Sequence record: NC_073321.1
Reading direction: 5' to 3' (one strand)
Origin: Escherichia phage ZCEC5
DNA length: 43,372 nt
Below the pieces are notes generated by a model. The model was not told the origin of the DNA and ran no database searches. It saw only the letters and a list, made by a program, of their open reading frames with translations. Below are positions 1 through 43,372 of this stretch, piece by piece (the first letter of the stretch is position 1; each line of letters starts with the position of its first letter). The position numbers were made by a program, and so were the translations under genes.

Positions 1-486
1 ATGAGAAACATTAGCAACAATGGCATCAAATTCACCGCAGCGTTTGAGGGATTCCGTGGGACTGCGTATCGTGCTACGCCGAATGAGAAGTACCTGACTA
101 TCGGCTACGGGCACTATGGCCCAGACGTAACCCCAGGTAAGACCATCACACCTGGACAAGGTCTCCTGTTACTGAATCGCGATATGGCTAAGGCCGTAGC
201 TGCGGTTGATGCGGCAGCGCACCGCTCCCTGACACAGTCACAGTTCGACGCAGTATGCGACCTGGTGTATAACGCTGGTGCCGGTGTGATAGCAGCTACT
301 ACCGGCACAGGTAAGGCACTGCGTTCCGGTGATATTGCAACACTGCGTACCAAGCTGGCGCTGTTTATCAACCAGAACGGCAAACCATTACTAGGCCTGC
401 GCCGCCGTACAGCCGGTCGCCTGGCGCTGTTCGATGGCAAACCGTGGCAGGAGGCGGAGGCAATTGGGCGCGCGGTGAAAGGTTGA
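1..486 (+). CDS. Endolysin (phage lysozyme, T4-lysozyme/GH24-like)
   Basis: 161 aa; N-terminal EGFRGTAY...TIGYGHYG lysozyme-like motifs; ORF begins exactly at window start and may be coupled to the HNH gene at the window end if circular. Confidence 0.8.
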   Translation: MRNISNNGIKFTAAFEGFRGTAYRATPNEKYLTIGYGHYGPDVTPGKTITPGQGLLLLNRDMAKAVAAVDAAAHRSLTQSQFDAVCDLVYNAGAGVIAATTGTGKALRSGDIATLRTKLALFINQNGKPLLGLRRRTAGRLALFDGKPWQEAEAIGRAVKG

Positions 487-2436: not shown

Positions 2437-2633
2437 GCGAAAAACTATTGTTACGTATGCTGCATACGCTTCTTGACGACAACGGGCAGGTGATATTCCA
2501 GTTTACCGGGCGCTACGACCTCCTAATCGATGTCTCTGATGGAACATTTGCTATTGGCGTCGAGTTTGTAGAAAGGGGTGATGCGTTCCAGTATCTAAGT
2601 GATAATTACGACGTACTGGAAGATATTTGCTGA
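2433..2633 (+). CDS. Hypothetical small protein (66 aa)
   Basis: ORF track; ATGA overlap. Confidence 0.5.
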   Translation: MSEKLLLRMLHTLLDDNGQVIFQFTGRYDLLIDVSDGTFAIGVEFVERGDAFQYLSDNYDVLEDIC

Positions 2634-2748
2634 TGAAACTGTTAATCATCCCTAACGCCTGGACTATAGCCGTAGCTAACGACCATTACGGCGGCGATGG
2701 TAAAAGAGCACCACGACACCGTTTATACAACTGATTGGAGAGTGAAAA

Positions 2749-2898
2749 ATGGTTGAATTCGATGATGTTTCATTTGAGGAGCCCATAGACCGGGTTGTTT
2801 TAATAGTGTATTGGGGCTTTTACTCAAAAGCATTCGAAGGCGACACGAAAGCAGATTGCATAAATCAATTACTGCAATGGGTCACAAGCCGAAAATAA
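2749..2898 (+). CDS. Hypothetical small protein (49 aa)
   Basis: Strong RBS GGAGAG upstream of ATG; followed by terminator. Confidence 0.35.
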   Translation: MVEFDDVSFEEPIDRVVLIVYWGFYSKAFEGDTKADCINQLLQWVTSRK

Positions 2899-2906
2899 CA
2901 ACACCA

Positions 2907-2932
2907 AAAGCCCTCCGTAGAGGGCTTTTCTG
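2907..2932 (+). terminator. Intrinsic terminator ending the small-gene array
   Basis: Hairpin AAAGCCCTC-CGTA-GAGGGCTTT followed by TTCTGT. Confidence 0.55.
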
Positions 2933-2960
2933 TACATCCCGCCCAATCCCCTTATATAAT
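2931..2960 (+). promoter_or_regulatory. Candidate promoter upstream of terminase genes
   Basis: Perfect -10 TATAAT at 2955-2960; weak -35 TGTACA 18 bp upstream. Confidence 0.35.
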
Positions 2961-3025
2961 CCCTTTAGACGCGTAGGGCGCGTCTGATGCGCTCTGATGG
3001 TCAGACGCATATGCAAGGGGATTCT

Positions 3026-3535
3026 ATGAAGCTGAAACTTAAGCAGCCATCGCCAGAGGTGGTGCAAGCTGCACATGAAGAAGCTGTTAGTGCAAACCGT
3101 CGCCGTAAACGACCGCGCGGTAAACAGAGCCTTTATCAATCATCCCGTAATTCCGCTGCGTTGTGGGACCCGGACTATTGCGACGCGTTAATCGAGTTCT
3201 TCGACCGCACGTCATGGGAGCTTGTGCCAACGTCTAAGGGTGATGAACGCCCGCTGATTCAGGATAAACCGCCATCGCTCGCCCGCTTTGCCCTACACAT
3301 CGGCGTCACTATCCCGATTATCAAGCTGTGGCTGCGTGAGATACCCGCGTTTGCAGAAGCCTATGAAACAGCACAGGCGCTGGAAGAGGCGTATTTCACT
3401 GAGACAGGGGCCGCGGGTATCTCCGCTACGTTCGCTGCCGCTAAGCTGGGGCTGAATAAAACTGTTGCCACTGAAGAAGTACGCGACGAGCCAATCAGTG
3501 AAGTAACAATTAAGGTGGTGTCCGGTGAACGTTAA
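3026..3535 (+). CDS. Terminase small subunit (putative)
   Basis: Position immediately upstream of and overlapping terminase large subunit; basic N-terminal region; RBS AAGGGGA before ATG 3026 (ORF-track frame 2987..3535). Confidence 0.6.
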   Translation: MKLKLKQPSPEVVQAAHEEAVSANRRRKRPRGKQSLYQSSRNSAALWDPDYCDALIEFFDRTSWELVPTSKGDERPLIQDKPPSLARFALHIGVTIPIIKLWLREIPAFAEAYETAQALEEAYFTETGAAGISATFAAAKLGLNKTVATEEVRDEPISEVTIKVVSGER

Positions 3536-7602: not shown

Positions 7603-8063
7603 TGATGGGCTTTTTCAAAATTACTGATGTACCGTCGCGTCGCGTAGTCCAGTTTGCCCGTGTGTCTGGCTCTGGCGAGAACGTGGTGTTTATTGAGGAT
7701 GAAAGTGAACTGGGTACACCAGTAGACGATATGCCGTTTGCAGATAAAACCGGTATTGCGCTACCAGCGGCGGGCATGCTTTACGAGATTCCGTATCTGG
7801 CGGACGCTGGTGACGTGTATTTCTCTGCGCAACCGCAGGACGCTGAACTGGCGGGCGGCAGCGCAACTATCACTGTCGAAGTTAAAGCCGGTAAAGCGCC
7901 ATACTCGCTGACCTGGTACAAAGACGGTAAGGAAGTGGTCAATGCCCCGGAAGAGGCTTTGTCTCTGACAGTTAATGCTGTAGGTGAATACTTCGTTAAA
8001 GTTACTGATGCCGATGGTGTAGAGGCTGTGAGTAAAGCGGCGAAGGTTACTAAGCCAGAATGA
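7602..8063 (+). CDS. Ig-like domain protein (possible head decoration)
   Basis: C-terminal Ig-like signature (TITVEVKAG...YSLTWYKDGKEV...GEYFVKVTDADG); paralogous to the 11084 product. Confidence 0.55.
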   Translation: MMGFFKITDVPSRRVVQFARVSGSGENVVFIEDESELGTPVDDMPFADKTGIALPAAGMLYEIPYLADAGDVYFSAQPQDAELAGGSATITVEVKAGKAPYSLTWYKDGKEVVNAPEEALSLTVNAVGEYFVKVTDADGVEAVSKAAKVTKPE

Positions 8064-8066
8064 TAA

Positions 8067-8093
8067 AAGGCCCCGTTAAGGGGCCTTAGTTTT
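8067..8093. terminator. Bidirectional intrinsic terminator
   Basis: AAGGCCCC-GTTAA-GGGGCCTT flanked by A-run and T-run; sits between convergent genes. Confidence 0.6.
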
Positions 8094-8316
8094 AAACTTC
8101 CACGTCTATTACCAAATCATCTGGTACGGTTATTACTATTTTATCGTTTTCATAGAATGGGTTAAGAGGCTCATTTTCAGGCTGCAGACGTAAAGTTATC
8201 TTTTTACCGCCAAGATAATTTATGTAACGAACCCAGTACCATTGGTCAAATACTTCCACCTTATCACCTGGGCATACGTCCGAGGCCTTCTTCTGATTCA
8301 TATATCTTACTGGCAT
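8092..8316 (-). CDS. Hypothetical protein (74 aa), opposite-strand accessory gene
   Basis: Perfect RBS AGGAGG, own promoter, terminated by the bidirectional hairpin. Confidence 0.55.
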   Translation of the reverse strand: MPVRYMNQKKASDVCPGDKVEVFDQWYWVRYINYLGGKKITLRLQPENEPLNPFYENDKIVITVPDDLVIDVEV

Positions 8317-8342
8317 ACATACCTCCTGTCTAAGTTAACTGA

Positions 8343-8371
8343 ATAGTAGCCTATTATGCTGGGGTGCGCAA
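8343..8371 (-). promoter_or_regulatory. Class B promoter TTGCGC-17-TACTAT containing palindrome AATAGGCTACTATT
   Basis: Near-identical copies at 16926-16954 (-), 39509-39537 (+) and 40677-40705 (+). Confidence 0.5.
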
Positions 8372-8423
8372 ACTGTTTATTTACGTATTCCAGTTATTCC
8401 ACAGAATTGCAAATGTTGGAATA

Positions 8424-8439
8424 AACTATTCGAATAGTT
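8424..8439. promoter_or_regulatory. Perfect 16-bp palindrome AACTATTCGAATAGTT (operator-like)
   Basis: Overlaps -35 of the 8438 promoter; half-sites are the same CTATT/AATAG pentamers as the promoter palindromes, inverted. Confidence 0.45.
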
Positions 8440-8466
8440 GACTTTTCACTGAAAATGTGCTAAGCT
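8438..8466 (+). promoter_or_regulatory. Sigma70-like promoter TTGACT-17-TAAGCT with TG extension
   Basis: -35 TTGACT 8438-8443; TGc immediately upstream of -10 TAAGCT 8461-8466. Confidence 0.45.
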
Positions 8467-8472
8467 CCACCT

Positions 8473-8675
8473 GAGCTTGTGAAGTATGAACAAGCGACCG
8501 CGGCGCGGGCAGGTAACGGAGCGGGACGTAAGTCCTGAGTGTAGTTACGCTGACGCGTTCGGAAGGGCCACACTCTATTTCTTGTGTAAAAAGTAACTGG
8601 TTTACTGAGATTACGCCGTTTCTATGTTTAAATGATAAGGACTAGCGCCCCGCTTTAAGGCGGGGCTTTACTTAT
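8473..8675 (+). ncRNA. Candidate ~200-nt leader transcript / small RNA
   Basis: Noncoding GC-rich stretch between promoter 8438 and terminator 8644; contains only a weak 36-codon ORF (8486-8596). Confidence 0.25.
8644..8675 (+). terminator. Intrinsic terminator directly upstream of spanin genes
   Basis: Stem GCCCCGC / GCGGGGC (7 bp) followed by TTTACTTAT. Confidence 0.5.
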
Positions 8676-8690
8676 CGAGAAAGGAGAAAC

Positions 8691-9077
8691 ATGAATCTTA
8701 AAGAAACTGTCGTAGCAGGAGCATGTTTCGCCATCCTGGCTCACGCCCACGGCATATACCAGTATCGCAGCGGCTGGAACGAAGGCCGGGCAAATCTCGT
8801 TTCGCAGCAACAGCAGAAAGCGCAGGCTGAGTTAGCGAAGAAAACACAACGGCAGCAGCAGGACGAATCAAAGGCCGCAGCCGCTGACAACGAAGGCAAG
8901 ACGAAATCAGAGGTGATTACCCGTGAAGTCGTTAAGTACATTAAAACGCCTGGTCGCAGCGTGTGCACTTTTGACCCTGAGCGCGTGCAGCTCAAGTCCC
9001 GCGCCGTCGCCAACGCCAATTCCATCCCCGGATACGACGATGATGCAGCCGCCGTGCAAACTGGCCTCGCCAAGTAG
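8691..9077 (+). CDS. i-spanin (Rz-like)
   Basis: N-terminal TM segment then Q/A/K-rich coiled-coil region; overlapped by o-spanin ORF. Confidence 0.7.
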   Translation: MNLKETVVAGACFAILAHAHGIYQYRSGWNEGRANLVSQQQQKAQAELAKKTQRQQQDESKAAAADNEGKTKSEVITREVVKYIKTPGRSVCTFDPERVQLKSRAVANANSIPGYDDDAAAVQTGLAK

Positions 9078-11083: not shown

Positions 11084-11425
11084 ATGGCAGACGTATTGAA
11101 ACGACGCGTCACCGGCGTCTCCGCTGACGCCCCGGGCGCTAAGATTGACATGGCGACTATTTCTCCTGCGTCTTTCTCTTCCGCGCTGGCGGCTACTACC
11201 GCAGTGACCACAGGTGAAACTATGACGCTGACCGTAACCGTAGCTGGCGGTCTGGAGCCGTATTCTTACCAGTGGTATGAGAATAACAACGCTATCGCCG
11301 GGGCTAACGCGGCTACCTACGCTAAAGCGTCAACCACTACCGCTGATTCTGGTACGTATAAAGTGGTTGTTCACGATGTGTATGGTAATATTATCTCCAG
11401 CAGCACTGTAGCAACTGTGTCTTAA
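11084..11425 (+). CDS. Ig-like domain protein (Hoc-like decoration candidate)
   Basis: TLTVTVAGG...YSYQWYENN...SGTYKVVVHD Ig-like signature. Confidence 0.55.
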   Translation: MADVLKRRVTGVSADAPGAKIDMATISPASFSSALAATTAVTTGETMTLTVTVAGGLEPYSYQWYENNNAIAGANAATYAKASTTTADSGTYKVVVHDVYGNIISSSTVATVS

Positions 11426-11461
11426 TACAACGGCCCTTCGGGGCCGTAATAAGGAAAGGTC

Positions 11462-11641
11462 ATGGCAGATAATTATGTAATCCGCGAAAAGTACACCCAC
11501 GTTGATGTTGTTGACGGTCAGGTGATGCCCGTTCGCGGTGTTGCAGAACCGGATGAGCTTGTGGCAACGCAACCAGATAACGAAGAAGCGCACAACAACG
11601 GCGGTGGTACTAAACGTCGTCGCCGTAAGTCAGAGGAATAA
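11462..11641 (+). CDS. Hypothetical small protein (59 aa), basic C-terminus
   Basis: RBS AAGGAAAGG; KRRRRK tail; below the ORF-track size cutoff. Confidence 0.4.
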   Translation: MADNYVIREKYTHVDVVDGQVMPVRGVAEPDELVATQPDNEEAHNNGGGTKRRRRKSEE

Positions 11642-11644
11642 TTT

Positions 11645-12157
11645 ATGCCTCTAATCGTGGAAACGGGTGAAATCGTCCCTAATGCTGACAGTTACGTTAG
11701 TCTGGCTGACGCCCGCGCGTTAGCGGCTAATTATGGCCTGGAGTTGCCCGCGGATGATACCGCCGCCGAAGTTGCCTTACGTAACGGTGCTACTTATGTC
11801 GGGCTTGCAGAACCTCAGATGTGTGGTCGCCGTGTATCCGCCGAACAGTCTCTTGCATACCCTCGCACTGGCGTGACGTTGAATGGGTTCCCTGTAGCTA
11901 ACAACGCCATTCCAAAACAGGTGATTCTTGCGCAGGTAATCGCGTCCGCTACATATGGGGCAGGTACTGAGGTACGAGCTAACTCTGACGGTCGCTCTGT
12001 GCAGACTGAGCGTGTCGAGGGCGCGGTAACAGTGACGTACTTCAACAACGGCAGCTCTGGCGCCACGACCGCGATTACCGCTGCTGACGACGCATTACGC
12101 CCGTTACTGTGCGGTGGTCTTAACAATGGCTTCTCGTTTAACGTGTACCGGGGTTAA
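11645..12157 (+). CDS. Head-tail connector/adaptor protein (putative)
   Basis: Position in head-to-tail joining block; RBS GAGGAA. Confidence 0.45.
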   Translation: MPLIVETGEIVPNADSYVSLADARALAANYGLELPADDTAAEVALRNGATYVGLAEPQMCGRRVSAEQSLAYPRTGVTLNGFPVANNAIPKQVILAQVIASATYGAGTEVRANSDGRSVQTERVEGAVTVTYFNNGSSGATTAITAADDALRPLLCGGLNNGFSFNVYRG

Positions 12158-26428: not shown

Positions 26429-26613
26429 TCGAACTCCACCAAACCGTCGTTAAAGAACTCAGCGATTATGTAGCCCGAGTCATCGTCGTAATCGGCGACT
26501 ATCTCACCAGCGTCTTCTAAAATTACGCGATACTCAATGCCGTTATAATAAGCCTGATATTCTTCACCTTCTTCGAACTCGGGTACGTTCGAACTAACGC
26601 AAAACAGTTTCAT
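26425..26613 (-). CDS. Hypothetical acidic protein (62 aa)
   Basis: ORF track; ATGA-coupled to SNF2 helicase. Confidence 0.45.
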   Translation of the reverse strand: MKLFCVSSNVPEFEEGEEYQAYYNGIEYRVILEDAGEIVADYDDDSGYIIAEFFNDGLVEFE

Positions 26614-28034
26614 TTCTTACCTCGTCTCTTCATGTAATTGAGCAATTCTTCCTGTACCGATTTCTTCTCGTCTGTACGCGCGGCAACAACCTCGTCCAGC
26701 GTGTCTTTAGCAACAATGTGATAGAGGAACACTGGGCGCTCATGCCCCGCCTGTTTCTGGCGGACCGGGCCTATACGCTCAACAACCTGCAAATAGTGCT
26801 CAAGGTTCCATCCTTGCGAGATGAACGCCAGATGATGTCCGCCGTCCTGTAAATTCAAACCATGCCCGGCTGACGCAGGGTGCACGCATAAGATTTCGAT
26901 TTCGCCACGGTTCCACGCTTCCATCTGCTTATTACCCTTAGCACCTTTTGCAAACGCCTGTGCCTGCGGGAATCGCTTAAGGATACGCTCCAGTTCGTGC
27001 TTGAACTGATAAGCCACCAGCAACGGCGCTCCCTGTAACTCCTCGACAATGGACTCCAGCGCATCCAGTTTCGTATCGTGCACTTTCTCCCAGTCTTTCG
27101 TTGCTTCGCCATCAGGCCCCGACACATACACGGCACCGGAGGCAATCTGCAAACACTTTGACGTCTTCGCCGCGGCGTTAGCAGCTTCAACTTCTCCGCT
27201 CTCCAGTTCTGCGAATAGCTTCTCCTCCATATCTATGTACGCCTGGCGCGCTTTCTTCGGCAGGTCGATCTCAACCGGTACAATAATCGGCGCTTCGCAA
27301 CCGAACCACTCGGCAGCGTCAATCGTGAGACTAATGTCCTTCATCTTCTGGTGAATCTCGTTATCTGCTCCCGGGCGCGCATGATACTCACGGGCCATCG
27401 CCGACTTACCTTTCTGTACCGAGTTAAACCATCGGTCGGTGAATGCTGTGTATGAGGACCCCAGGCGCTCGCCCGCGTCGATAAACCAGTTCTGCCCCCA
27501 CAAATCCTTGAGGCCGTTTGGCGATGGCGTACCAGTAAGGTTTATCAACCTCTTAACATTTCTGAATGCTACTTTACTAAGCGCCTTAGCCCGCTTGCTC
27601 CCCCCGGAACGGCTACGGAATGATTTCAATTTCGTGCTTTCATCATTAACTATCACGGTAAAAGGCCAGTCGTCTACGCCGTAATAGTCGATAAGCCACT
27701 CTATTACCTCGTAGTTGATGCAAATCACATTGGCGTCTGACTCCAGCGCAGCTATGCGGCGCTTCTCTGAACCGGTGGCATCTACGACACTCAGGCATGG
27801 GAAATTCCACTTAGTTTGTTCTGCGGGCCACGTACCGGACGCAACACGTAAAGGAGCCAGAATTAACACGCGGTCGTCATCATTAAGTTGCCCATTACGG
27901 AACAGCCGGTTTAACGCCCACAAGACGCTGCCTGTTTTTCCTGCGCCCATGCTCGCCCAAATATTACAGCGCGGATGTTGCAACATGAACGAAGTCATGA
28001 GCTTCTGGTACTCGCGCCTTTGAAACTTACTCAT
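26610..28034 (-). CDS. SNF2-family (DExx-box) helicase
   Basis: Walker A SMGAGKTG near N-terminus, DESTK motif II, C-terminal helicase domain. Confidence 0.75.
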   Translation of the reverse strand: MSKFQRREYQKLMTSFMLQHPRCNIWASMGAGKTGSVLWALNRLFRNGQLNDDDRVLILAPLRVASGTWPAEQTKWNFPCLSVVDATGSEKRRIAALESDANVICINYEVIEWLIDYYGVDDWPFTVIVNDESTKLKSFRSRSGGSKRAKALSKVAFRNVKRLINLTGTPSPNGLKDLWGQNWFIDAGERLGSSYTAFTDRWFNSVQKGKSAMAREYHARPGADNEIHQKMKDISLTIDAAEWFGCEAPIIVPVEIDLPKKARQAYIDMEEKLFAELESGEVEAANAAAKTSKCLQIASGAVYVSGPDGEATKDWEKVHDTKLDALESIVEELQGAPLLVAYQFKHELERILKRFPQAQAFAKGAKGNKQMEAWNRGEIEILCVHPASAGHGLNLQDGGHHLAFISQGWNLEHYLQVVERIGPVRQKQAGHERPVFLYHIVAKDTLDEVVAARTDEKKSVQEELLNYMKRRGKK

Positions 28035-28062: not shown

Positions 28063-28950
28063 TTAAGCGGCTACTTGCGGGACGATGGCATTGCCATAAC
28101 CGCGCAATCGTCCCACTCTGGCGGGTATCCCATTAGCCAGCGGGAATGTGCCGGGTTCAACTGGCCGGAATTTTCCATCCCGGCAGCCGAGCCAGTCAGC
28201 ATCTGACCAGAAGCCGTTATGCGTATTGGCTCCACGAGGTAGCATTGATTGTGAAGATTGTTCGGGTCTCTTTTTGTTTCCGCCTCGCTGTAACTTCCGT
28301 GACGCGAATTCTGAACCGTCGGTGTCCCCCATGCCGCTTTCAGCCCCTGTTCCGTTGAGTAGTCCAGTCTGTCGAATGTTCTGTCCTTCCCATCCTTGCG
28401 AATCACTGTCTCCCCGCTCCCTTTGTAATCGTTCGCTGTCGGTGTCGGCCAATTCGTGCGCACCAAAGAAGAGTCGTTCTCTTTTGTGCGGAGCGCCGAC
28501 GCTACAAGCTGGGAGTACGGCAAACCCGACGGCGTAGTCTTCTCCTTCCAGGTGAGCTTGTAAATCGCACATCCACGATTTTGCAATTGCTGGTGCAACC
28601 TGTTCCCCAAAGAGGACTGGAGGGCGGCACTCGCTGATGAGGTCGAGGAAAACTGGCGCAAGGTGTCTCGGGTCGAACTGTCCGAGTTGTTTTCCTGCCG
28701 CGCTAAACGGTTGGCAAGGCGGGCTTCCCGTCCAGAGAGGCGTATCTTCCGAAACTCCCGCAAGTCTGAGCGCGAGAGGCCAGCCGCCGATACCAGCGAA
28801 AAAATGACACTGGGTGAACCCGTCGAGGTCTTCTGGCTTAACTTCGGTAATGCTTCTTTCATCTACAACTCCAAAAGGTATGTGGCCCTGTTTTATTAAT
28901 TCACGCAGCCACGCGGCTGCGCCTTTATCCCATTCGTTGTAATAGTTCAT
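28063..28950 (-). CDS. DNA (cytosine-5)-methyltransferase, orphan
   Basis: Motif I FAGIGG, motif IV SPPCQPFS, ENV-like GEQV, HKRER, C-terminal GNAIVPQVA; no adjacent restriction enzyme. Confidence 0.8.
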   Translation of the reverse strand: MNYYNEWDKGAAAWLRELIKQGHIPFGVVDERSITEVKPEDLDGFTQCHFFAGIGGWPLALRLAGVSEDTPLWTGSPPCQPFSAAGKQLGQFDPRHLAPVFLDLISECRPPVLFGEQVAPAIAKSWMCDLQAHLEGEDYAVGFAVLPACSVGAPHKRERLFFGAHELADTDSERLQRERGDSDSQGWEGQNIRQTGLLNGTGAESGMGDTDGSEFASRKLQRGGNKKRPEQSSQSMLPRGANTHNGFWSDADWLGCRDGKFRPVEPGTFPLANGIPARVGRLRGYGNAIVPQVAA

Positions 28951-29149: not shown

Positions 29150-29455
29150 TTATATTGTTGGTGTATGACTACTATAATAGTTCGCTATTAGGTCGTCAAC
29201 CTGTTTAAACGAACCAACGACAAAAACATTCGCGCCGCGTTTACGCATACGCTCGTGCTCACGTAACTGGTGCGGGTCTGGCTTCGTGTTTTCGTCTTTC
29301 TTAACCTCGACGAACCAGACGATGCCGCCGGGGAGAATTACCAGCAGGTCAGGAGCGCCCACTCTATTTTCGTACGACAATTTGCGTACAAGGCCCCCCA
29401 TGGCCTCAAATCGCTCTTTTGCGTATTTCTGAACAACTCCTTCTTTAGTTGCCAT
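29150..29455 (-). CDS. VRR-NUC domain nuclease
   Basis: GAPDLLV...VEVKK...Q...G..VFVV signature of the VRR-NUC PD-(D/E)xK fold; ATG 29455 chosen to avoid overlap with HNH gene. Confidence 0.7.
   Translation of the reverse strand: MATKEGVVQKYAKERFEAMGGLVRKLSYENRVGAPDLLVILPGGIVWFVEVKKDENTKPDPHQLREHERMRKRGANVFVVGSFKQVDDLIANYYSSHTPTI
29171..29199 (-). promoter_or_regulatory. Class A promoter TTGACG-17-TATAGT with palindrome AATAGCGAACTATT in spacer
   Basis: Same architecture as promoters at 33083-33111 and 35913-35941. Confidence 0.5.
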
Positions 29456-29477
29456 GGTTATGGAAATCTCCGTGTAG

Positions 29478-29936
29478 CTATTCTCTCGCCGCGCAGACCA
29501 CTTTGTACGCTTCCTCCTTTGTCGAAAAAGCACCGAGATATATGCGCTTCCCGTTCACGGTTATCCTTGCCCTAAATTTACCTCTTTCAGGCGATACCCC
29601 CTTTAAACATGAGGTGTTGTCGCGCCTTACCCTTGCGTTTCTGGTATTCTCCCACCTGGTCGCTAACCGCAGGTTGCAAATCCGATTATCCGCACGGTCG
29701 CCGTTTATATGGTCAACCTCCTCCGGCGGCATATCACCGTACACCCACCACCAAGCCAATCGGTGTGCCGGATAGTGGACGTTTCTGAACACAACTTTCA
29801 TATATCCAAGGTCAGTGTAGTTATTTATAACTTTCCCCGGAACAGACCGCGGGCCACTTCGCTTAACCCATTTGAATACCCCAGTATCAGGGTCGTACGA
29901 CAGAAAATCTTTTATATCGCCACTTGGTGCTTTCAT
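29478..29936 (-). CDS. HNH homing endonuclease with AP2-like DNA-binding domain
   Basis: DHINGDRADNRICNLR HNH motif; C-terminal AP2-like segment; N-terminal YDPDTGVFKW shared with two paralogs. Confidence 0.7.
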   Translation of the reverse strand: MKAPSGDIKDFLSYDPDTGVFKWVKRSGPRSVPGKVINNYTDLGYMKVVFRNVHYPAHRLAWWWVYGDMPPEEVDHINGDRADNRICNLRLATRWENTRNARVRRDNTSCLKGVSPERGKFRARITVNGKRIYLGAFSTKEEAYKVVCAARE

Positions 29937-30018
29937 AATACACACCCCTCACGTTTCGTGTGTTCAATCCCGCAGCGCGGACAGATTCGACAATCTTCTT
30001 CATAAAACCAGTAAATTT

Positions 30019-30150
30019 TCATTCCATCACCCACAGATAAATTGCGATGAACATACCAAATACGGCAACCATCATGCCGTATTGTCCCTCGTGACAGTAG
30101 ACACCGGCGGCGAATCCCGCCAGTAACGCGATAATCAGTTTACTTAGCAT
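30019..30150 (-). CDS. Hypothetical hydrophobic peptide (43 aa)
   Basis: Start overlaps polymerase 3' end; single long hydrophobic stretch. Confidence 0.3.
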   Translation of the reverse strand: MLSKLIIALLAGFAAGVYCHEGQYGMMVAVFGMFIAIYLWVME

Positions 30151-32338
30151 AGCGCTTCATCTCCGCACCTTCTGCTACAAGAGGGAACCCCTCGGCCCAC
30201 TCCGGCAATGCGCACATTAATTTTTCCAGTTCAGCCACCGTGTAGTCAGGCGTATCTGGAGTTTCACATACCAGTTCATCGTGTACCGAAAGTACGATGG
30301 GATACCCGCCACCCTCAACATTAATCATTGCATATGCGAGTAAATCACGGCACAGCGCCTGAACAATGTTTTCGCAGGCTTTGCCGCCGTGGGTGTACAG
30401 GGTAGTCCATTGGCGGGTTAACTGGTTTTCACCCTGATACTTGATTCGCACATTCGTGTTTACTCGTCCGTCTTCGTCTGTTTCCTTTGTCACACTAACG
30501 CCGATTCCCGGATACGAAAGGATACGACCTGACGGCAACTCCATACACAACCACCAACCCGGAACCTTCCTACCGGATGAATCAAATTCTACTGTTCTCC
30601 AGATTCGGATAGCGCGCTCACCATTCTTGCGCAGATGCGCCCCCGCCCAAAATTCACGACCAGGATTACGAACAGCGGCTAAAATTCCGTCTTTAAGGTC
30701 GCGCCAGAACGCTACTGTTTCCGGGTGTGACTCGCGCCACATACGCTTGATTGCGTCACATGTGCGCCACACTTTCTTGTCCAGAATATACGATGGTCTG
30801 TCGTCCTTTTCACCTGGATGCGGTGGGCGCTTGGCTTCCTGGATACGAGCCCACTCATAACCCCGTGCGGTAGCGGCCCATATGTGGTCGGGGAATGTAC
30901 CGTCCATTGTTTTTGCCATCTCAATAAGGTCAAGACCTAAGTTTTTAGCGAACGTAACGAACGCCCCGACGCCTCCCTCATAACCGAGGCCCAGTTCGCA
31001 TGCTTTGCCTATCTGTCTGATTTCCTTAAAGTTTTTCTTAATATCATCAGGGTCCATGCCGAACATCTTACCCGCGGTTACGCAGTAAATATCCAACCCG
31101 GCACGGAACGTATCGAGCGCGGTTTCTTCACCAGCCAGCCACGCAAGCCCCCGGCCTTCAACGTTAGAGTAATCGGCAACAACAAACTTATGTCCGGCTT
31201 CCGGTATTATGCAGCTACGGACCGTCGATGCCGTCAGCTTGGCTACATCAAAACGGCGATGCGCGCGGCCTTTAAGTAACGCAGAAATTCCTTTATCCAG
31301 TTCGTCATCGTGATAGTACCCGCGCGCCAGGTTCTGCGGCTGGAAGCCTTTACCCGCCCATCGCAGAGTACGTTTTGCCCCGCCGTACTGCAAGCAACCG
31401 CGGCGGCGGTCGTCAGAAGAGCGACCTAATAGCAGCGGGTTATATTTCGTGGACGCGGTGGACGCAGCCCCGAGGCGCATCTCAACAATATCCCTTGCGT
31501 CTTCTGGTAAATCCTCGTCCGACAGCAGGTCGAACAACGTCGCCTTTTGCGCGTTATGTATGCGGTGGGCGGGGGCGAGTTCCTGCAATGCGGGCAGGAA
31601 GTCTTTTCCAGTTAATGAGCAACCGAATTTACGTTGCGACTCCTCCTGCAACCCCTCCTTATGCCGTGTTATGGCTTCGATGGCGGCTTCTGCCAGTGCG
31701 ACGTCAACCTTAAACCCGCGGTCGTTGATTAACTGGTCAAGTACCAGTACACGGTCTTCGAACTCCGAGTTTCCCCACCGCGGCATTTTTTGGAACACTT
31801 CGCGCATAGAAGTGATATCGCTAATCGCATACTTTATGAAAAGCGCCCACTCTTCTGGGTGTGTTTCTGACGTATATCGGCGTATTTTGTAGTTCTTCGG
31901 GGTTGGCTTAGTGAATCTTTTAATTAATGCTTTGCCACGTTTGTCCTTGGCGTTCTCCGCGGATACTTCTAGAACTTCACACAAAACAGCCAATTTCCCC
32001 GGCAGCGCGTGGCGGAAAGCGCAGGTCATTGTGTCAATAACACTGTCTACAGGTATATCGTAACCCCAGCAGTTACGGATAACCAAGCGGTCGAACATAT
32101 TGAAGTTATGGCCCACAATTTTAATATCACCCCGCATTGCTTTACGTAGGCCAACTTTCAGGTCCCGCGGCATGTCGCTGCCGTCTGTGCAGTCCCAACA
32201 CCGAACATCACCATCGTCGAATGCGTAGGTGCATATAAGAATTTCTGTCGATGGGTGTTCGGCGTAGGCGTAACTACCGACAACCGTTATGTCTAAATCA
32301 CAAAAAGTTTCAGTATCTAGGTAAAGTAATTCGCTCAT
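30140..32338 (-). CDS. DNA polymerase, family A, with 3'-5' exonuclease domain
   Basis: Exo motif YLDTETF; motif A DYSNVEGR, motif B KxxxLGxGYG, motif C VHDE. Confidence 0.9.
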   Translation of the reverse strand: MSELLYLDTETFCDLDITVVGSYAYAEHPSTEILICTYAFDDGDVRCWDCTDGSDMPRDLKVGLRKAMRGDIKIVGHNFNMFDRLVIRNCWGYDIPVDSVIDTMTCAFRHALPGKLAVLCEVLEVSAENAKDKRGKALIKRFTKPTPKNYKIRRYTSETHPEEWALFIKYAISDITSMREVFQKMPRWGNSEFEDRVLVLDQLINDRGFKVDVALAEAAIEAITRHKEGLQEESQRKFGCSLTGKDFLPALQELAPAHRIHNAQKATLFDLLSDEDLPEDARDIVEMRLGAASTASTKYNPLLLGRSSDDRRRGCLQYGGAKRTLRWAGKGFQPQNLARGYYHDDELDKGISALLKGRAHRRFDVAKLTASTVRSCIIPEAGHKFVVADYSNVEGRGLAWLAGEETALDTFRAGLDIYCVTAGKMFGMDPDDIKKNFKEIRQIGKACELGLGYEGGVGAFVTFAKNLGLDLIEMAKTMDGTFPDHIWAATARGYEWARIQEAKRPPHPGEKDDRPSYILDKKVWRTCDAIKRMWRESHPETVAFWRDLKDGILAAVRNPGREFWAGAHLRKNGERAIRIWRTVEFDSSGRKVPGWWLCMELPSGRILSYPGIGVSVTKETDEDGRVNTNVRIKYQGENQLTRQWTTLYTHGGKACENIVQALCRDLLAYAMINVEGGGYPIVLSVHDELVCETPDTPDYTVAELEKLMCALPEWAEGFPLVAEGAEMKRYAK

Positions 32339-33111: not shown

Positions 33112-33300
33112 ATAAAATTTTGCAATAGGGATTATGTTCTCGAAATTAAGCATATTGGCCGGTTCGAACTCATCCTCTACAGGGTCGTATCGCATCATGG
33201 TACCGTTCAAGAACGTGAACGATTCCGAGTGTAGATACCCATCCCAGCGCCATACCATCAAAAAATCTTTATCAGTCGGCATTTCATTTACTTGAATCAT
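33097..33300 (-). CDS. Hypothetical protein (67 aa)
   Basis: ATG 33300 overlaps DUF2800 stop (ATGA) and is preceded by GAGGAGGA. Confidence 0.45.
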   Translation of the reverse strand: MIQVNEMPTDKDFLMVWRWDGYLHSESFTFLNGTMMRYDPVEDEFEPANMLNFENIIPIAKFYLTHE

Positions 33301-34538
33301 TCTAAATCCTCCTCTGTAACTTGATTCCACTCAGGACGTGTGTCATCCGCCGTTGCGACGCATGGCGCACCGGGCTTACGGGTAATGAAGTCTTTCAGTT
33401 CTTCTTCCGGTACAATTTTAACCGCTTCGGTCGGTGTCATAAGAACTACCTTTTGCAGCATAGTACCGTACTTCTCGAATACTGCGTCGGTATCTTTCCA
33501 CGCACGATTACCGGGGCGACCTTCAACCAGTTTGTATCCTGGCACTTTCTTACCTGAATGCAAAGCAGCAGCCATCGCTTTCTCAACCTTGTCGATGTGC
33601 TGGCGCAACAACGGCAGCTTCTCATACTCAGCGACGAGTTGCTCTGGCGTAAGTTCCAGCGCACAGTCGTCCTCAAGTTCTTCCGCCAGTACCGCGTTAA
33701 CGGTTTTTGTACGAGCTGCGCACTGTTCCGAGAAACGACACCACTGACAACCATCTACCGACGGCTTGAAGTCCGACGCTTTAAGGTTCTTCTTGCCGCG
33801 GTTATAGGCATCAAGTGCTAACAGTGCACGTTTCTGTGCGAACTTAGCGAACAGTTCCAGACCTTCAACCGAGATGTCCCACTCCGACGCGCCACCAGCG
33901 TACGGCTGAAAGATGACCAGACGAACGGTTGTTATGTTATAACGTCTCTTGAGTCGGCGATAAACACCGAGAGCGTAAAGCATAAGCTGCTTGTTTTCTT
34001 TCGCTTCGACACGATGTCGTCCTGTTTTCAGGTCGCCAATAATGAGCATGTACTCGTCGGTGTTAGCCAGTTCCTGAACGGCAACAAGGTCGGCGGTTCC
34101 GAAGGTTTCAACGCCTTCGTAACCTGGGTGCAATACCTCAGTAAGGTTAACGCGCATCTCGAGCTTGGCGTAAGTAGCTACATCGATAATCGGTTTGCAG
34201 TAGTCTGTGTACTTGCGCACCTGCTCAATCATATCCGCCGTAATCAGTACCGCGCCTTTCATCGGGCTGATTAGCGCCTTAATCTGACCTTTACCCTCAT
34301 CCAGCACGTAAGCGCCGACTTCACGCTCTAACGGCAACGCAGTGCCTTTTATATACTGGTTTAGATGGACCTCAGCTATAGTGTGACATGCGGTTCCTGT
34401 AACTGCGGATTTACCAGACGTGTTAGGAATATCTTTTTCACAGGCCAGTGATGCAGCGCATGACAGCCACTTTTTAGCCCCGGACGGCGACAGTAAAGCG
34501 TGTACGTCGTTATTGCCACCGCGTTCTTTTAGAATCAT
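33297..34538 (-). CDS. DUF2800-like PD-(D/E)xK nuclease with C-terminal Cys cluster (Cas4/RecB-like)
   Basis: N-terminal LLSPSGAKKWLSC, catalytic-type GDLKTG, C-terminal CQWCRFSEQC. Confidence 0.7.
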   Translation of the reverse strand: MILKERGGNNDVHALLSPSGAKKWLSCAASLACEKDIPNTSGKSAVTGTACHTIAEVHLNQYIKGTALPLEREVGAYVLDEGKGQIKALISPMKGAVLITADMIEQVRKYTDYCKPIIDVATYAKLEMRVNLTEVLHPGYEGVETFGTADLVAVQELANTDEYMLIIGDLKTGRHRVEAKENKQLMLYALGVYRRLKRRYNITTVRLVIFQPYAGGASEWDISVEGLELFAKFAQKRALLALDAYNRGKKNLKASDFKPSVDGCQWCRFSEQCAARTKTVNAVLAEELEDDCALELTPEQLVAEYEKLPLLRQHIDKVEKAMAAALHSGKKVPGYKLVEGRPGNRAWKDTDAVFEKYGTMLQKVVLMTPTEAVKIVPEEELKDFITRKPGAPCVATADDTRPEWNQVTEEDLE

Positions 34539-35032
34539 TTCTCGTCTCCGTTAACTGTAAAGCCGTATTTAATTTCGGCTTGCCTACGAGCCTTAGCTGC
34601 GTTCTCTAATTTATCGTAAGCCCCTAAATAAATCGGCGTACCGTCTACATAAATTCTTGCAACCCACTTACCGCAGCGTTTATGAAACCCAACACCTTTA
34701 ACCCCTGAAGTATTGTCAGCCCGTACGCTGGTGCCGTGTGCGATGCTACCTCGACGCATTTTTATAAGATTTTCTATCCTGTTATCAGTTCTATCTTTAT
34801 TTTCGTGACGAATTACTTCCCCCGGCGCTATCGGCCCGTTAAACATCTCCCAAACAACGTGGTGGATAAGTTTAGTAGCACCGTTAAAACGCAGTATTTT
34901 AAATTCACTCCCATCGTTATCCACCCTCGTACTGCCGGCTTCCTGTCCTATTTTTACAGATTTTGACGGGCTTATTTTCCAAAACAATTTACCTGTATCA
35001 CGGTCGTAGTCAAAAACTTCACGCCAATTCAT
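34535..35032 (-). CDS. HNH-AP2 homing endonuclease paralog (degenerate HNH motif)
   Basis: N-terminal FDYDRDTGKLFWK; HNH region reads IRHENKDRTDNRIENL; C-terminal AP2-like YLGAYDKLENAAKARR; ATG 35032 overlaps upstream stop. Confidence 0.6.
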   Translation of the reverse strand: MNWREVFDYDRDTGKLFWKISPSKSVKIGQEAGSTRVDNDGSEFKILRFNGATKLIHHVVWEMFNGPIAPGEVIRHENKDRTDNRIENLIKMRRGSIAHGTSVRADNTSGVKGVGFHKRCGKWVARIYVDGTPIYLGAYDKLENAAKARRQAEIKYGFTVNGDEK

Positions 35033-35301
35033 GCCAAAGTCTCCCACTGGTCAATTAAATGTCGTGTCTGGTGATGGCAATGCATGGCCCACCCGTACAT
35101 CGACTCGAAGACATAAAAGTCAGGTTTGGCGAAAGTCGTGCGCTTAATCTGCGACACGTGACGGCCTATATCTTTAGGCCGTGGTACTTTGCCTAAGTAC
35201 GCCATCTCTTCCATCTGGTGCGCACCGGACGGCGCACGCAACAGCCACAACGCCTCTGTGTTATCCCGCCTGTCAACGGCGCGGTAGAGTTGGTAAACCA
35301 T
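35029..35301 (-). CDS. Hypothetical protein (90 aa)
   Basis: RBS GAGGG; His-rich segment HCHHQTRH. Confidence 0.45.
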   Translation of the reverse strand: MVYQLYRAVDRRDNTEALWLLRAPSGAHQMEEMAYLGKVPRPKDIGRHVSQIKRTTFAKPDFYVFESMYGWAMHCHHQTRHLIDQWETLA

Positions 35302-40018: not shown

Positions 40019-40235
40019 CATTTTAATTGTGGGGGTTGATATGAGTCCGTATAACGAATTCCGCTTACGCCGTCTTGTCTATGGTCTGCGCGCCGCCGAG
40101 TTTGTAGTTAAATGCCGGGAAAATTCTGAGCGCACCTATAAGGAACCGTGGCGTTTGGCTCATGCTAAGGCGGTAGCACAGTACCGGGGGTACAAGTTAA
40201 ACAGTTTCCTTAGACACCACGGGGTTGAGTTATGA
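40011..40235 (+). CDS. Hypothetical protein (74 aa)
   Basis: GTG start with RBS GAGGGAGG; ORF-track frame 39939..40235. Confidence 0.45.
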   Translation: MNNILIVGVDMSPYNEFRLRRLVYGLRAAEFVVKCRENSERTYKEPWRLAHAKAVAQYRGYKLNSFLRHHGVEL

Positions 40236-41738: not shown

Positions 41739-41923
41739 TTATGGTGCAGAGATATACCTACGACCAGATATTCGGGTTTACTCCCGATGTTGAGGGCGTG
41801 TTAGTGCTTTACGAAGATTACGCGAAACTCGAAGCTGAGTTACAGAAATACAAAGACCAGTTCCCGGATTACGTCGAGTGCGCGAACTGTGGGTCAGTTA
41901 CGCATGTGGAAGGGGTGGAGTGA
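41735..41923 (+). CDS. Hypothetical protein (62 aa)
   Basis: ATGA-coupled; C-terminal CANCGS. Confidence 0.45.
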   Translation: MIMVQRYTYDQIFGFTPDVEGVLVLYEDYAKLEAELQKYKDQFPDYVECANCGSVTHVEGVE

Positions 41924-42216
41924 TGTCGTTAGCAACTGACATCCTGAAACGAAGCGGCCTTTCGCCGCTGTCGCCGAGAGCTAAAACACAGATATACAAG
42001 CGTCGGGGTAACGCGCTGTACCCCGAGATTCAGGCCCGACGCAAAGCTATACGCGCCTGTGGATTCCAGAACGGGAAGGCCGTGAATCTCGGCGAGTTTA
42101 AAACACAGGAACGCGCAGCAATCGCTAATCGGCTATTTAATTACTGGAAATCGCTCGGATACGATGATATTCCGACGAAACCGCAGAGACGACAATACAT
42201 CTGGCGTCACAAATAA
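41923..42216 (+). CDS. Standalone AP2-like DNA-binding protein
   Basis: GKAVNLGEFKTQERAAIANRLF resembles the AP2-like C-termini of the three HNH proteins; no HNH motif. Confidence 0.45.
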   Translation: MSLATDILKRSGLSPLSPRAKTQIYKRRGNALYPEIQARRKAIRACGFQNGKAVNLGEFKTQERAAIANRLFNYWKSLGYDDIPTKPQRRQYIWRHK

Positions 42217-42246
42217 ACAGTTATTAAGATAAATCCTAAGCGTGGT

Positions 42247-42286
42247 ATCCTCCAGTTACTGCATACTTAATACGCACCTGGAGGAT
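42247..42286 (+). promoter_or_regulatory. RNA hairpin sequestering the Shine-Dalgarno of the holin gene
   Basis: 9-bp stem ATCCTCCAG / CTGGAGGAT with 22-nt loop; right arm holds GGAGG 7 nt before the TTG start. Confidence 0.4.
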
Positions 42287-42291
42287 TCATC

Positions 42292-42600
42292 TTGGATAAA
42301 TTTACTGAAACAGTGACAGGCTGGCTCCTCGCCGCCGCACTAGCCGGTGGGGTAATCGGACTACGACAACATAAGTCCGCTATTTCCGGCCCTATCGACG
42401 GATTCTGCTTTATTGCAACCGGCTTCACCTGCGCCGTATTTGGTGCGCCTCTCGCGGCTCAATGGTTCGATATTACTGGTGAGCGTGAAATCGCTGGTCT
42501 GGGATTCATCATCGCTATTCTCTGGATGCCTATTTATTCCCGCCTCTCCGGTATCGTCTCTGGAGAATACATCGCTCGTCGAGGAGGCACAGATGAATGA
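42292..42600 (+). CDS. Holin candidate (class I-like, 3 TM segments)
   Basis: 102 aa, three hydrophobic helices, charged C-terminus; TTG start; adjacent to endolysin across the window junction. Confidence 0.5.
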   Translation: MDKFTETVTGWLLAAALAGGVIGLRQHKSAISGPIDGFCFIATGFTCAVFGAPLAAQWFDITGEREIAGLGFIIAILWMPIYSRLSGIVSGEYIARRGGTDE

Positions 42601-42865
42601 GTTATTCTGGTTCGGTGGTATGCTGGCAATCGGGGGCACATCGCTGTTTAATGTGTATCATCCCAGCGTGGACGACGGATTATTTGGCCGGGTGCTCTAT
42701 ATCCTGACTGCCATCGTCTGTGCCGCCGGATGTATCCACCTGTTACAGGGCAGCATGTCACCTACGTTGCCTGAGACATTAATCACATTAGTTGCGCTGC
42801 GCCAGATTCGCCAGGCGTGGCTATCATACGGAGGACATAAGCGTGTCTCGAAACATTTCAGATAA
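42593..42865 (+). CDS. Second small membrane protein of lysis cassette (holin/antiholin candidate, 2 TM)
   Basis: 90 aa; RBS GAGGAGG; ATGA-coupled; basic C-terminus. Confidence 0.4.
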   Translation: MNELFWFGGMLAIGGTSLFNVYHPSVDDGLFGRVLYILTAIVCAAGCIHLLQGSMSPTLPETLITLVALRQIRQAWLSYGGHKRVSKHFR

Positions 42866-43372
42866 TGGGCTTACCGCAGATAAACTGCGGGAGGTTTTAC
42901 ACTACAACCCTGACACCGGAGTTTTTACATGGAAATCTACACGCGTGCACAATGCTCGGGTGGGGAGTGAGGCTGGGGCCAACCATGGCGCAGGCTATCG
43001 CTCCATAGCCCTCGGCGGGAAGCGGTACTTGGCGCATCGTCTCGCCTGGCTATACATGACAGGGGAGTGGCCCAACTCCCTGATAGACCACATAAACGGC
43101 GATGGACGTGATAATAGATTCTGTAATTTACGTGAAGCCAACAAATCCGAAAACGGATGCAACAAAGGGCCAAGAAAGGACAGCAAATCTGGTATTAAGA
43201 ACGTTATGTGGCAGAAGCAACAAGGAGGATGGTACGTTCAATTAAAAATACATAAGATTAAGTATTTTTACGGATACTTTGCGGACCTAGAACTAGCCGC
43301 GCTAGTTGCCGAAGAAGCTAGAGAGAAGATACACGGGGTTTTTGCGAACCATAAATTACGGGAAGGTGCTTT
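42843..43372 (+). CDS. HNH-AP2 homing endonuclease (3' end runs off the window)
   Basis: GTG start with RBS GGAGGA; DHINGDGRDNRFCNLR HNH motif; AP2-like segment; no stop before window end. Confidence 0.7.
   Translation, partial: MSRNISDNGLTADKLREVLHYNPDTGVFTWKSTRVHNARVGSEAGANHGAGYRSIALGGKRYLAHRLAWLYMTGEWPNSLIDHINGDGRDNRFCNLREANKSENGCNKGPRKDSKSGIKNVMWQKQQGGWYVQLKIHKIKYFYGYFADLELAALVAEEAREKIHGVFANHKLREGA

Follow-up and report, generated by a model that had tools for sequence, protein, structure and literature searches.

Why would one small phage genome hold three related nuclease genes, each set within an operon of the phage? The question is raised by Escherichia phage ZCEC5 (NC_073321.1), whose entire 43,372-bp sequence is referred to here as the window. 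This sequence, circularly permuted, is a complete Kagunavirus genome (Guernseyvirinae, K1G-like E. coli siphophage); it begins at the endolysin ATG and has the gene order of K1G. A 3.5-kb probe from the window matched 490 phage records, the majority from Salmonella Jerseyvirus and Escherichia Kagunavirus, with a top identity of about 92%. An initial annotation made from the sequence had described three paralogous HNH-AP2 endonuclease genes lying between conserved genes, and all three open reading frames (ORFs) were found where it had placed them: H1 (29478-29936, minus strand), H2 (34535-35032, minus strand) and H3 (42843-43372, plus strand, continuing into window positions 1-4). The ATG starts assigned to H1 (29936) and H2 (35032) were correct: both overlap the upstream stop as ATGA and are conserved starts in relatives. 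The comparisons described below indicated that H1, H2 and H3 are very likely three independently acquired, free-standing HNN-AP2 homing endonuclease genes.

Family membership of the three genes

A common N-terminal segment, Y-(D/N)-x-D-T-G-x-(F/L)-x-W, was confirmed in H1, H2 and H3, and the HNH core and AP2-like C-terminus proposed for all three were borne out by Pfam, phrog_99, profile and fold matches. HNH_3 (PF13392, gathering cutoff 24.8 bits) was matched above its cutoff by H1 (55.5 bits, E 4.4e-15), H2 (50.5 bits, E 1.6e-13) and H3 (53.1 bits). The scores for AP2 (PF00847, gathering cutoff 33.3 bits) were 20.6 bits (E 5e-4), 26.4 bits and 15.5 bits, respectively. All three proteins were assigned to phrog_99, H1 at E 1e-58. 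Pairwise BLASTP, the alignment suggested with the initial annotation, gave 30-35% identity at E-values of 1e-18 to 1e-28, far past chance. A tblastn search of the window revealed no fourth copy or fragment of the HNH-AP2 family; PADLOC returned weak 'homing endonuclease' models only, and the NCBIfam search gave no match.

The PDB search with the lone H3 sequence returned nothing meaningful, and a profile of ten sequences was required. The HNH part of this ten-member family profile matched I-HmuI from Bacillus phage SPO1 (PDB 1U3E, E 9e-4), and its C-terminal part matched the plant AP2 domains of WRI1 (E 2.4e-6) and TEM1 (E 1.5e-3). The AlphaFold model of H3 (predicted local distance difference test score, pLDDT, 90.9) has strands at residues 121-124, 129-136 and 139-146 and a helix at 149-163 in its AP2 part. 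Foldseek analysis of this model gave 1u3e_M (I-HmuI) as the top PDB match (probability 1.00, E 3e-3, root mean square deviation 3.6 over 88 columns), followed by the AP2 domains of TEM1, WRI1 and ERF1 (probability 0.97-1.0). I-HmuI is therefore the best solved match by both profile and fold, with sequence identity of about 20% and a match confined to the HNH region. I-HmuI is encoded in an intron and binds DNA through parts other than an AP2 domain. Its residues D74 and N96, the metal ligands (equivalents of Cas9 D839 and N863), and H75, the general base, align to the D-H...N residues of H1 (D-H...WEN) and H3 (D-H...SEN), which retain them; H2 has no equivalent of D74 or N96.

The family is abundant, with 4742 relatives at E<=1e-10, many of them precomputed as PF13392 plus PF00847, and the HNH-AP2 family is reportedly treated by Magnani et al. 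in 2004. By family, H1, H2 and H3 are free-standing HNH-AP2 endonuclease genes. Their mutual protein identity of only 30-35% indicates that they are separate acquisitions and not recent duplicates. Same-site homologues are already annotated as HNH or homing endonucleases in the same neighbourhood of other phages, at 92-98% nucleotide identity (72% for SETP3, over part of the gene): Shashou gp40 and SETP3 ORF37 for H1, EcoPhCCP1 XHQ01495 for H2, and SETP13 gp61, AG11_58 and BUCT825 for H3. Unlike these homologues, the window H1 contains a premature TAG. Variable presence in relatives had been set beforehand as the test of the homing claim, and all three genes proved sporadic: K1G has none of them, and none of the records examined carries H1, H2 and H3 together. 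Each gene is co-oriented with its operon and joined to its neighbours by overlapping stop and start codons; the HNH genes would therefore be expressed without breaking the operon.

Insertion sites and state of H3, H1 and H2

The suggested comparison of insertion sites with HNH-free relatives was made, and the K1G and Bas71 alleles define the sites. The description of the genes as lying between conserved genes held for H2, which is a precise insertion; H3 lies inside the 5' codons of the endolysin gene, and H1 replaces a small ORF. The signature of mobility was read from synonymous divergence (dS), comparing each gene with its flanks; for H1 and H2, dS relative to their Salmonella homologues was saturated and of no use.

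The K1G endolysin starts with GTG TCT CGA AAT ATT TCA GAT AAT GGA TTG (VSRNISDNGL), 23 nucleotides before the holin stop. H3 begins with this K1G-type endolysin start, including the GGAGG ribosome-binding site and the first ten codons, and the HNH body follows. At its 3' end, H3 reads ...GGAAGGTGCTTT ATGA, which includes a new start ATG for the endolysin (MRNISNNGIKFTAAFEG); both this fresh ATG and a Shine-Dalgarno-like AAGGTG are provided by H3. Codons 1-14 of the window endolysin repeat the segment that now starts H3. The gene is split by the window end and closes on circularisation as GCT TTA TGA, with its TGA and the endolysin ATG overlapping. In Bas71, the empty allele has the sequence GTGTCTCGAAACATTAGCAACAATGGC. 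Two copies of GAAACATT, and no others, are present in the 43-kb window genome, both flanking H3, and a single copy is found in the empty Bas71 allele (GTGTCTCGAAACATTAGCAAC). Because the empty allele has a single octamer, the H3 insert can be delimited as 527 bp bounded by GAAACATT.

Copies of H3 at high identity were detected in 16 records, BUCT825 (96%) and 15 Salmonella Jerseyvirus phages (about 95%); relative to the Salmonella Jerseyviruses, the flanks of H3 reach an identity of 50-74%. With an artificial holin-endolysin junction as the query, the H3 site proved uninterrupted in all but three of the 60 best Kagunavirus records (57); the exceptions were Bas73 and Bas74, with an additional 113 bp, and BUCT825, with the full gene. 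Nucleotide identity between the window and Salmonella phage SETP13 was 41-58% in the holin, 90-100% in H3 and 66-80% in the endolysin, the drop after H3 coming within about 30 nucleotides of the endolysin. The dS values were 0.19 for H3, 1.64 for the endolysin and 1.83 for the holin against SETP13, and 0.15, 0.75 and 0.51, respectively, against BUCT825. As the dS of H3 is far below that of the endolysin and holin, the comparison marks H3 as a gene apparently transferred recently between phage genera at a homologous site.

The 113-bp sequence of Bas73 and Bas74 is an in-frame relic that keeps both H3 ends; Bas73 reads VSRNISDNGLTADKLREVLHYDPDTGVF joined to ANHKLREGAL and a stop. The ends being joined in frame, the coupling to the endolysin is preserved. 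Bas73 was also considered as an empty site, which was rejected since the locus is a deletion relic of H3. The BUCT825 record annotates the H3 homologue as a 'hypothetical protein' and a shorter 'endonuclease'; a split gene was rejected here as an annotation artefact, the ORF from the GTG being complete (locus 2523-3034).

Endolysin codons 5-14, approximately, fall into sharply different alleles in phages that are otherwise 85-90% identical there (segments compared: window 1-45 and 42843-42885; K1G 40159-40200; Bas71 551-595 of its locus). K1G has ISDNGLHFCA, Bas71 and the window have ISNNGIKFTA, and the N-terminus of H3 resembles the K1G allele. The idea that the 5' end of the window endolysin is a recoded, immunity-conferring copy was rejected, because Bas71 has the same sequence as a natural empty allele. 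Repeated rounds of invasion and loss, or selection for sites that cannot be cut, could account for the allele split.

The H1 locus lies 3' of the polymerase gene, where two small conserved ORFs are followed by a variable slot; the stop of the second ORF overlaps the next start as ATGA, which in the window is the start of H1. The slot is occupied by a 50-residue membrane-like ORF in K1G and EcoPhCCP1 and by H1 in the window, Shashou and SETP3. Judged by these alleles, H1 replaces the small membrane-protein ORF. XY2 and VIPECOMC04 have a different phrog_99 gene directly 3' of the polymerase. The 29-residue ORF directly upstream of the slot (MKIYWFYEEDCRICPRCGIEHTKREGCVL) is found in Kagunavirus and Jerseyvirus; it is annotated in Shashou (gp41) and EcoPhCCP1 and unannotated in K1G and SETP3.

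H1 is present at 98% nucleotide identity in Shashou and Sciku only (2 phage records) and at about 72% in Salmonella phages such as SETP3 (part of the gene). Between the window and Shashou, identity was 98-100% in H1, 91-95% in the near flanks and 64-76% in the polymerase, and dS was 0.06 for H1 and 0.26 for VRR-NUC. These values indicate that H1 is younger than its flanks. The window TAG corresponds to TCA in Shashou, which continues ...SLHGDFCNHGD to its stop, and tblastn alignments extend past the window stop. Because the TAG replaces this TCA and the tail is still in frame behind it (LHGDFHNHGN between two stops), H1 appears to be freshly truncated by 11 residues. H1 relics were looked for in the longer intergenic spans of EcoPhCCP1 and SXAU_B4 and not found; a promoter and terminator scan around H1 and H2 performed no better than shuffles.

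At the third site, the ORF37 stop and the exonuclease start of K1G overlap as ATGA, and H2 of the window lies exactly between two ATGA copies. Its G+C content is 43.4% versus 50.7% for the genome, and it is found in relatives EcoPhCCP1 (92%) and LM02P1 (89%) only. The degenerate HNH motif noticed in the initial annotation was confirmed: H2 has IRHENKDRTDNRIENLIKMRRGSIAHG versus IDHINGxxxDNRxxNLRxxxxxxNxxN in the family. Its HNH_3 match covers model positions 2-37 of 46 only, and is a match to the fold family without the active-site signature. Motif columns were counted in a 47-member family alignment (H3 numbering), comprising 3 H2-lineage and 44 other sequences. D82, R97, N104 and N107 are invariant in 44/44 members outside the H2 lineage, and in the H2 lineage (3/3) they are replaced together (D82 to R, R97 to I, N104 to I, N107 to G). 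D82 and N104 are the positions aligned by profile to I-HmuI D74 and N96. H2 retains the general-base His and the DNR..NL core, and has an extra His three residues past the lost Asn (IAHG). Two metagenome clusters, with 77 and 20 members, conserve the variant motif as well.

The ratio of nonsynonymous to synonymous divergence (dN/dS) in the H2 lineage was 0.09-0.13 at dS 0.3-0.43, and dS was 0.32 for H2, 0.57 for the exonuclease and 0.23 for ORF37. By these measures H2 is under purifying selection and no decaying pseudogene; the comparisons indicate an old resident that is kept as a functional protein. H2 is probably without canonical nuclease activity.

Guernseyvirinae have an insertion hot spot where the ORF37-like gene meets the exonuclease, at the ATGA junction. 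Besides the empty state, relatives carry an unrelated 115-residue ORF (+344 bp; phiEc3 and Golestan type), a DUF551 gene (+257 bp, fTaEco03), a 205-bp insert without an obvious ORF, or canonical HNH-AP2 genes (BCH953P1, 44% identity to H2; SE-W109, 56%). A tandem arrangement was observed in metagenome protein P0109 (272 residues): the Asp-to-Arg change of H2 recurs in its HNH-like N-terminal half (IRHINGDPTDNRIANL), a complete canonical HNH-AP2 unit follows, and a degenerate copy may here have been fused to an active one.

The AP2-only gene and further loci

The initial annotation had also singled out the ORF at 41923-42216 as carrying only the AP2-like part. Its AP2-like nature was supported by a family profile; the gene is no local HNH remnant, being a conserved syntenic gene. 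The ORF alone gave no Pfam match, and a shallow alignment of close homologues gave 5% probability in hhalign and no PDB sequence match. Its model (pLDDT 67) contains a hairpin (43-59) and a helix (62-78) only, and Foldseek of this model returned nothing significant, with AP2 domains at ranks 3 and 10. An exhaustive profile search recovered 70 relatives, the matches including a 924-residue multi-AP2 protein. The 59-member alignment has a conserved MSLATDILKR N-terminus and a basic linker, followed by the core PGV..W(R)A....G....LG.F.T.eRA..A.RLY..W..G..DIP.KP. The first strand ('PGV') that most family members have is missing from the window ORF and from its close relatives.

The 59-member profile matched the AP2 part of HNH-AP2 proteins (hhalign, 96.5% probability, E 1e-9) and the solved AP2 domains of WRI1 (E 2.2e-5) and TEM1, and 14/59 members matched Pfam AP2 on their own. 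Plant AP2/ERF domains (WRI1 7WQ5, TEM1 7ET4, ERF1 1GCC) thus resemble both the HNH-AP2 C-termini and the 41923 family by profile, with a fold match as well, and share the three-stranded sheet plus helix. They differ in being parts of eukaryotic transcription factors without a nuclease, and the window ORF lacks strand 1. The genes of divergent family members have the same position, being followed directly by a pair of small holin-like genes and a lysozyme gene, as is the K1G member, and for this reason we regard the ORF as a conserved syntenic gene. It probably encodes a DNA-binding factor. A 'peptidase HslV family' gene lies between the AP2-like ORF and the first holin in Bas73, BUCT825 and SETP13 (locus positions 1450-1890 in two and 1427-1861 in one); it is missing from the window (42216-42292) and K1G.

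Table 1. Positions of the HNH-AP2 genes, the AP2-only gene and their neighbours in the window
Feature	Position	Strand	Remarks
H1, HNH_3 + AP2, canonical D-H...N...N motif	29478..29936	-	terminating TAG removes conserved C-terminal tail
Relic of H1 C-terminal tail (LHGDFHNHGN, then stop)	29445..29477	-	read-through translation, in frame after TAG
VRR-NUC (Holliday junction resolvase) gene, downstream of H1	29150..29455	-	
29-residue CxxC...C small ORF	29933..30022	-	stop overlaps H1 start; kept with or without HNH gene
DNA polymerase I gene, upstream side of H1 locus	30140..32338	-	
DUF2800 / PD-(D/E)XK exonuclease gene	33297..34538	-	ATG overlaps H2 stop
H2, HNH_3 + AP2, four invariant motif residues replaced	34535..35032	-	494-bp insertion bounded by ATGA 35029-35032 and 34535-34538
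K1G ORF37-like gene	35029..35301	-	stop overlaps H2 start
AP2-like small protein, phrog_9632	41923..42216	+	AP2 strands 2 and 3 plus helix, without strand 1; directly upstream of holins
Second holin gene	42593..42865	+	last 23 nucleotides overlap H3 start (in K1G, endolysin start)
H3, HNH_3 + AP2, canonical, complete	42843..43372 and 1-4	+	begins at ancestral endolysin GTG and ribosome-binding site
Left GAAACATT direct repeat flanking 527-bp H3 insert	42850..42857	+	right copy at window 5-12
Endolysin, displaced 3' of H3	1..486	+	new ATG overlaps H3 stop (ATGA)

Other loci were compared with relatives. The cytosine methyltransferase region of the window contains two ORFs of 295 and 263 residues (28063-28950 and 28071-28862, minus strand), which overlap almost completely in different frames; in K1G, two overlapping 'DNA methyltransferase' coding sequences are annotated at the corresponding place. 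The SNF2-type helicase of the window (26610-28034, minus strand, 474 residues) is free of inteins. In Shashou and SETP3 the helicase gene contains an intein that includes a homing endonuclease (stretches 1-1886 and 1-1782 of the two relatives were compared), which points to a further mobile-element site that is empty in the window. K1G has a mobE-like homing endonuclease gene (7987-8736) between ORF11 and the head-tail adaptor gene, where the window has a gap of about 220 bp (11425-11645).

Proposed homing and the rival explanations

Proteins of this class pair a beta-beta-alpha-metal nuclease of the I-HmuI type with an AP2 domain that binds DNA. During co-infection, the nuclease from an occupied genome would nick or cut a related phage's empty allele close to the point of insertion, and repair templated by the occupied genome would copy the HNH gene in. 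The occupied genome would itself be immune because the insertion splits the target. Embedding in the operon is most extreme at the lysis locus, where H3 takes over the endolysin start codon, the ribosome-binding site and the first ten or so codons. The three genes may represent different stages of gain and decay: H3 would be intact and recently moved across phage genera; H1 would be recently shared and newly truncated by a nonsense codon; and H2, with both metal-ligand positions gone, would most likely be no canonical nuclease, and would be retained by selection as a DNA-binding protein.

A gain-and-decay model has been proposed for the Xanthomonas oryzae phages Xp10, OP1 and Xop411, which carry multi-copy free-standing HNN-AP2 genes (PMC2248197). 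These siphophages resemble the window in having several dispersed copies per genome, with the motif set HRLAW, WP, D-H, DNR, NLR and EN followed by AP2, and in combining intact copies with C-terminally truncated ones and small proteins that hold only the C-terminal AP2 part. The phage group and the insertion sites are different, and the window adds an explicit signature of cross-genus transfer for one copy and one lineage whose catalytic residues are replaced yet under purifying selection; its AP2-only protein belongs to a conserved syntenic family and is no obvious local remnant. HNH-AP2 homing endonuclease genes near essential genes are also exchanged between phage lineages (PMC10448857). 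The IPA-HNH genes of ICP1-like phages described there share the N-terminal HNH, the C-terminal AP2, the position near essential genes and the horizontal exchange; their ICP1 proteins are too divergent for Pfam HNH_3, unlike H1, H2 and H3, which score well above its threshold. Homing endonucleases are listed among the Jerseyvirus accessory genes (PMC8425127).

Several points weigh against three acquired homing genes. The single-protein AP2 scores of H1, H2 and H3 all fall under the Pfam gathering cutoff. Insertion points are the sole basis on which the target sites were placed, and immunity is deduced solely from the split site, the 5' sequence of the window endolysin being a natural allele (Bas71). 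The H1 locus is a replacement and no clean insertion, and the dN/dS of H1 is based on 9 differences. H2 has no mobility signature, its identity to relatives being that of its flanks. As unrelated cassettes (the 115-residue ORF, DUF551) are also inserted at the H2 junction, ordinary illegitimate or cassette recombination could be the source of the genes found there.

The alternative that survives best holds that H2, possibly along with the others, has been domesticated as a DNA-binding protein in the service of the phage and is not a selfish nuclease; we regard this as possible and on the doubtful side. Such a protein could regulate the replication/recombination operon, or could occupy the ATGA junction and so block canonical HNH relatives. 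The replacement of four invariant catalytic-motif residues in the H2 lineage only, the strong purifying selection, the divergence in step with the flanks and the presence of canonical HNH-AP2 genes at the same junction in BCH953P1 and SE-W109 are all consistent with it, and AP2-domain phage proteins have been documented as sequence-specific repressors (bioRxiv 10.64898/2026.02.23.707548). However, only 3 phage records including the window, of more than 100 Kagunavirus records, carry H2, which argues that it is dispensable, and the retained general-base His, DNR..NL core and IAHG His are compatible with a variant active site.

A joint reading of H2 and the AP2-only gene is a tentative and rather unlikely one: H2 would be a dead HNH-AP2 protein kept as a site-specific binder, and the 41923 family would be a dedicated lysis-cassette regulator across Guernseyvirinae. 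H2 could then regulate the replication/recombination operon or guard a much-used junction against canonical HNH relatives. If this were true, a route from selfish nuclease to regulator would be visible within one small genome, the same route by which AP2 transcription factors are proposed to have arisen.

It is unlikely that the nucleases serve chiefly to attack co-infecting relatives (marker exclusion) and spread their genes only as a side effect. Essential genes (endolysin, exonuclease, VRR-NUC/polymerase) do contain or adjoin their targets, a pattern reported for phage homing endonuclease genes at large (PMC10448857), and the sharp divergence of the first 14 endolysin codons among phages about 85-90% identical is expected if cleavage selects resistant alleles. 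Sequence alone cannot separate a weapon role from homing, and H3 occupancy in Kagunavirus is very low, at about 1-3%, which makes a strong competitive benefit unlikely.

An essential, non-mobile function of the HNH proteins (as a terminase HNH packaging cofactor, or in lysis or replication) is highly improbable. The genes are located within the operons for replication and lysis, and their translation is coupled to that of essential genes; but K1G and most Kagunavirus genomes lack all three, none of them adjoins the terminase genes, and Bas73 and Bas74 tolerate an internal H3 deletion. HNH proteins involved in packaging belong to PF01844, and the three proteins match PF13392 instead. Weakest of all, and barely credible, is a recent duplication inside this genome, as the term paralogous might be read: despite their common architecture, YDxDTGxFxW motif and phrog_99 assignment, the three genes are far less alike (30-35%) than each is to the same-site copy in another phage (92-98% nucleotide identity), and the HNH protein of phage XY2 is closer to H1 and to H2 than H1 is to H2.

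HNH-AP2 homing endonuclease genes are abundant in phages; near-identical copies of those studied here are already annotated, and genes of this kind were described in 2007 (PMC2248197). The present analysis adds the base-exact anatomy of the sites, the cross-genus transfer of H3, a motif-less H2 that is constrained, and an AP2-like label for a PHROG family that had no assigned function; for annotation purposes, phrog_9632 and phrog_4947 can carry this label. Returning to separately acquired homing genes, one 43-kb genome would display three stages in the life cycle of a homing element, with empty, occupied and relic alleles defined to the base. Because these alleles are present in culturable relatives (K1G, BASEL Bas70-75), target-site mapping and co-infection crosses would be straightforward. 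H3 provides a case of apparent transfer between E. coli and Salmonella phage genera together with the takeover of another gene's translation start, and H2 and the AP2-only family are candidates for the exaptation of a nuclease as a DNA binder.

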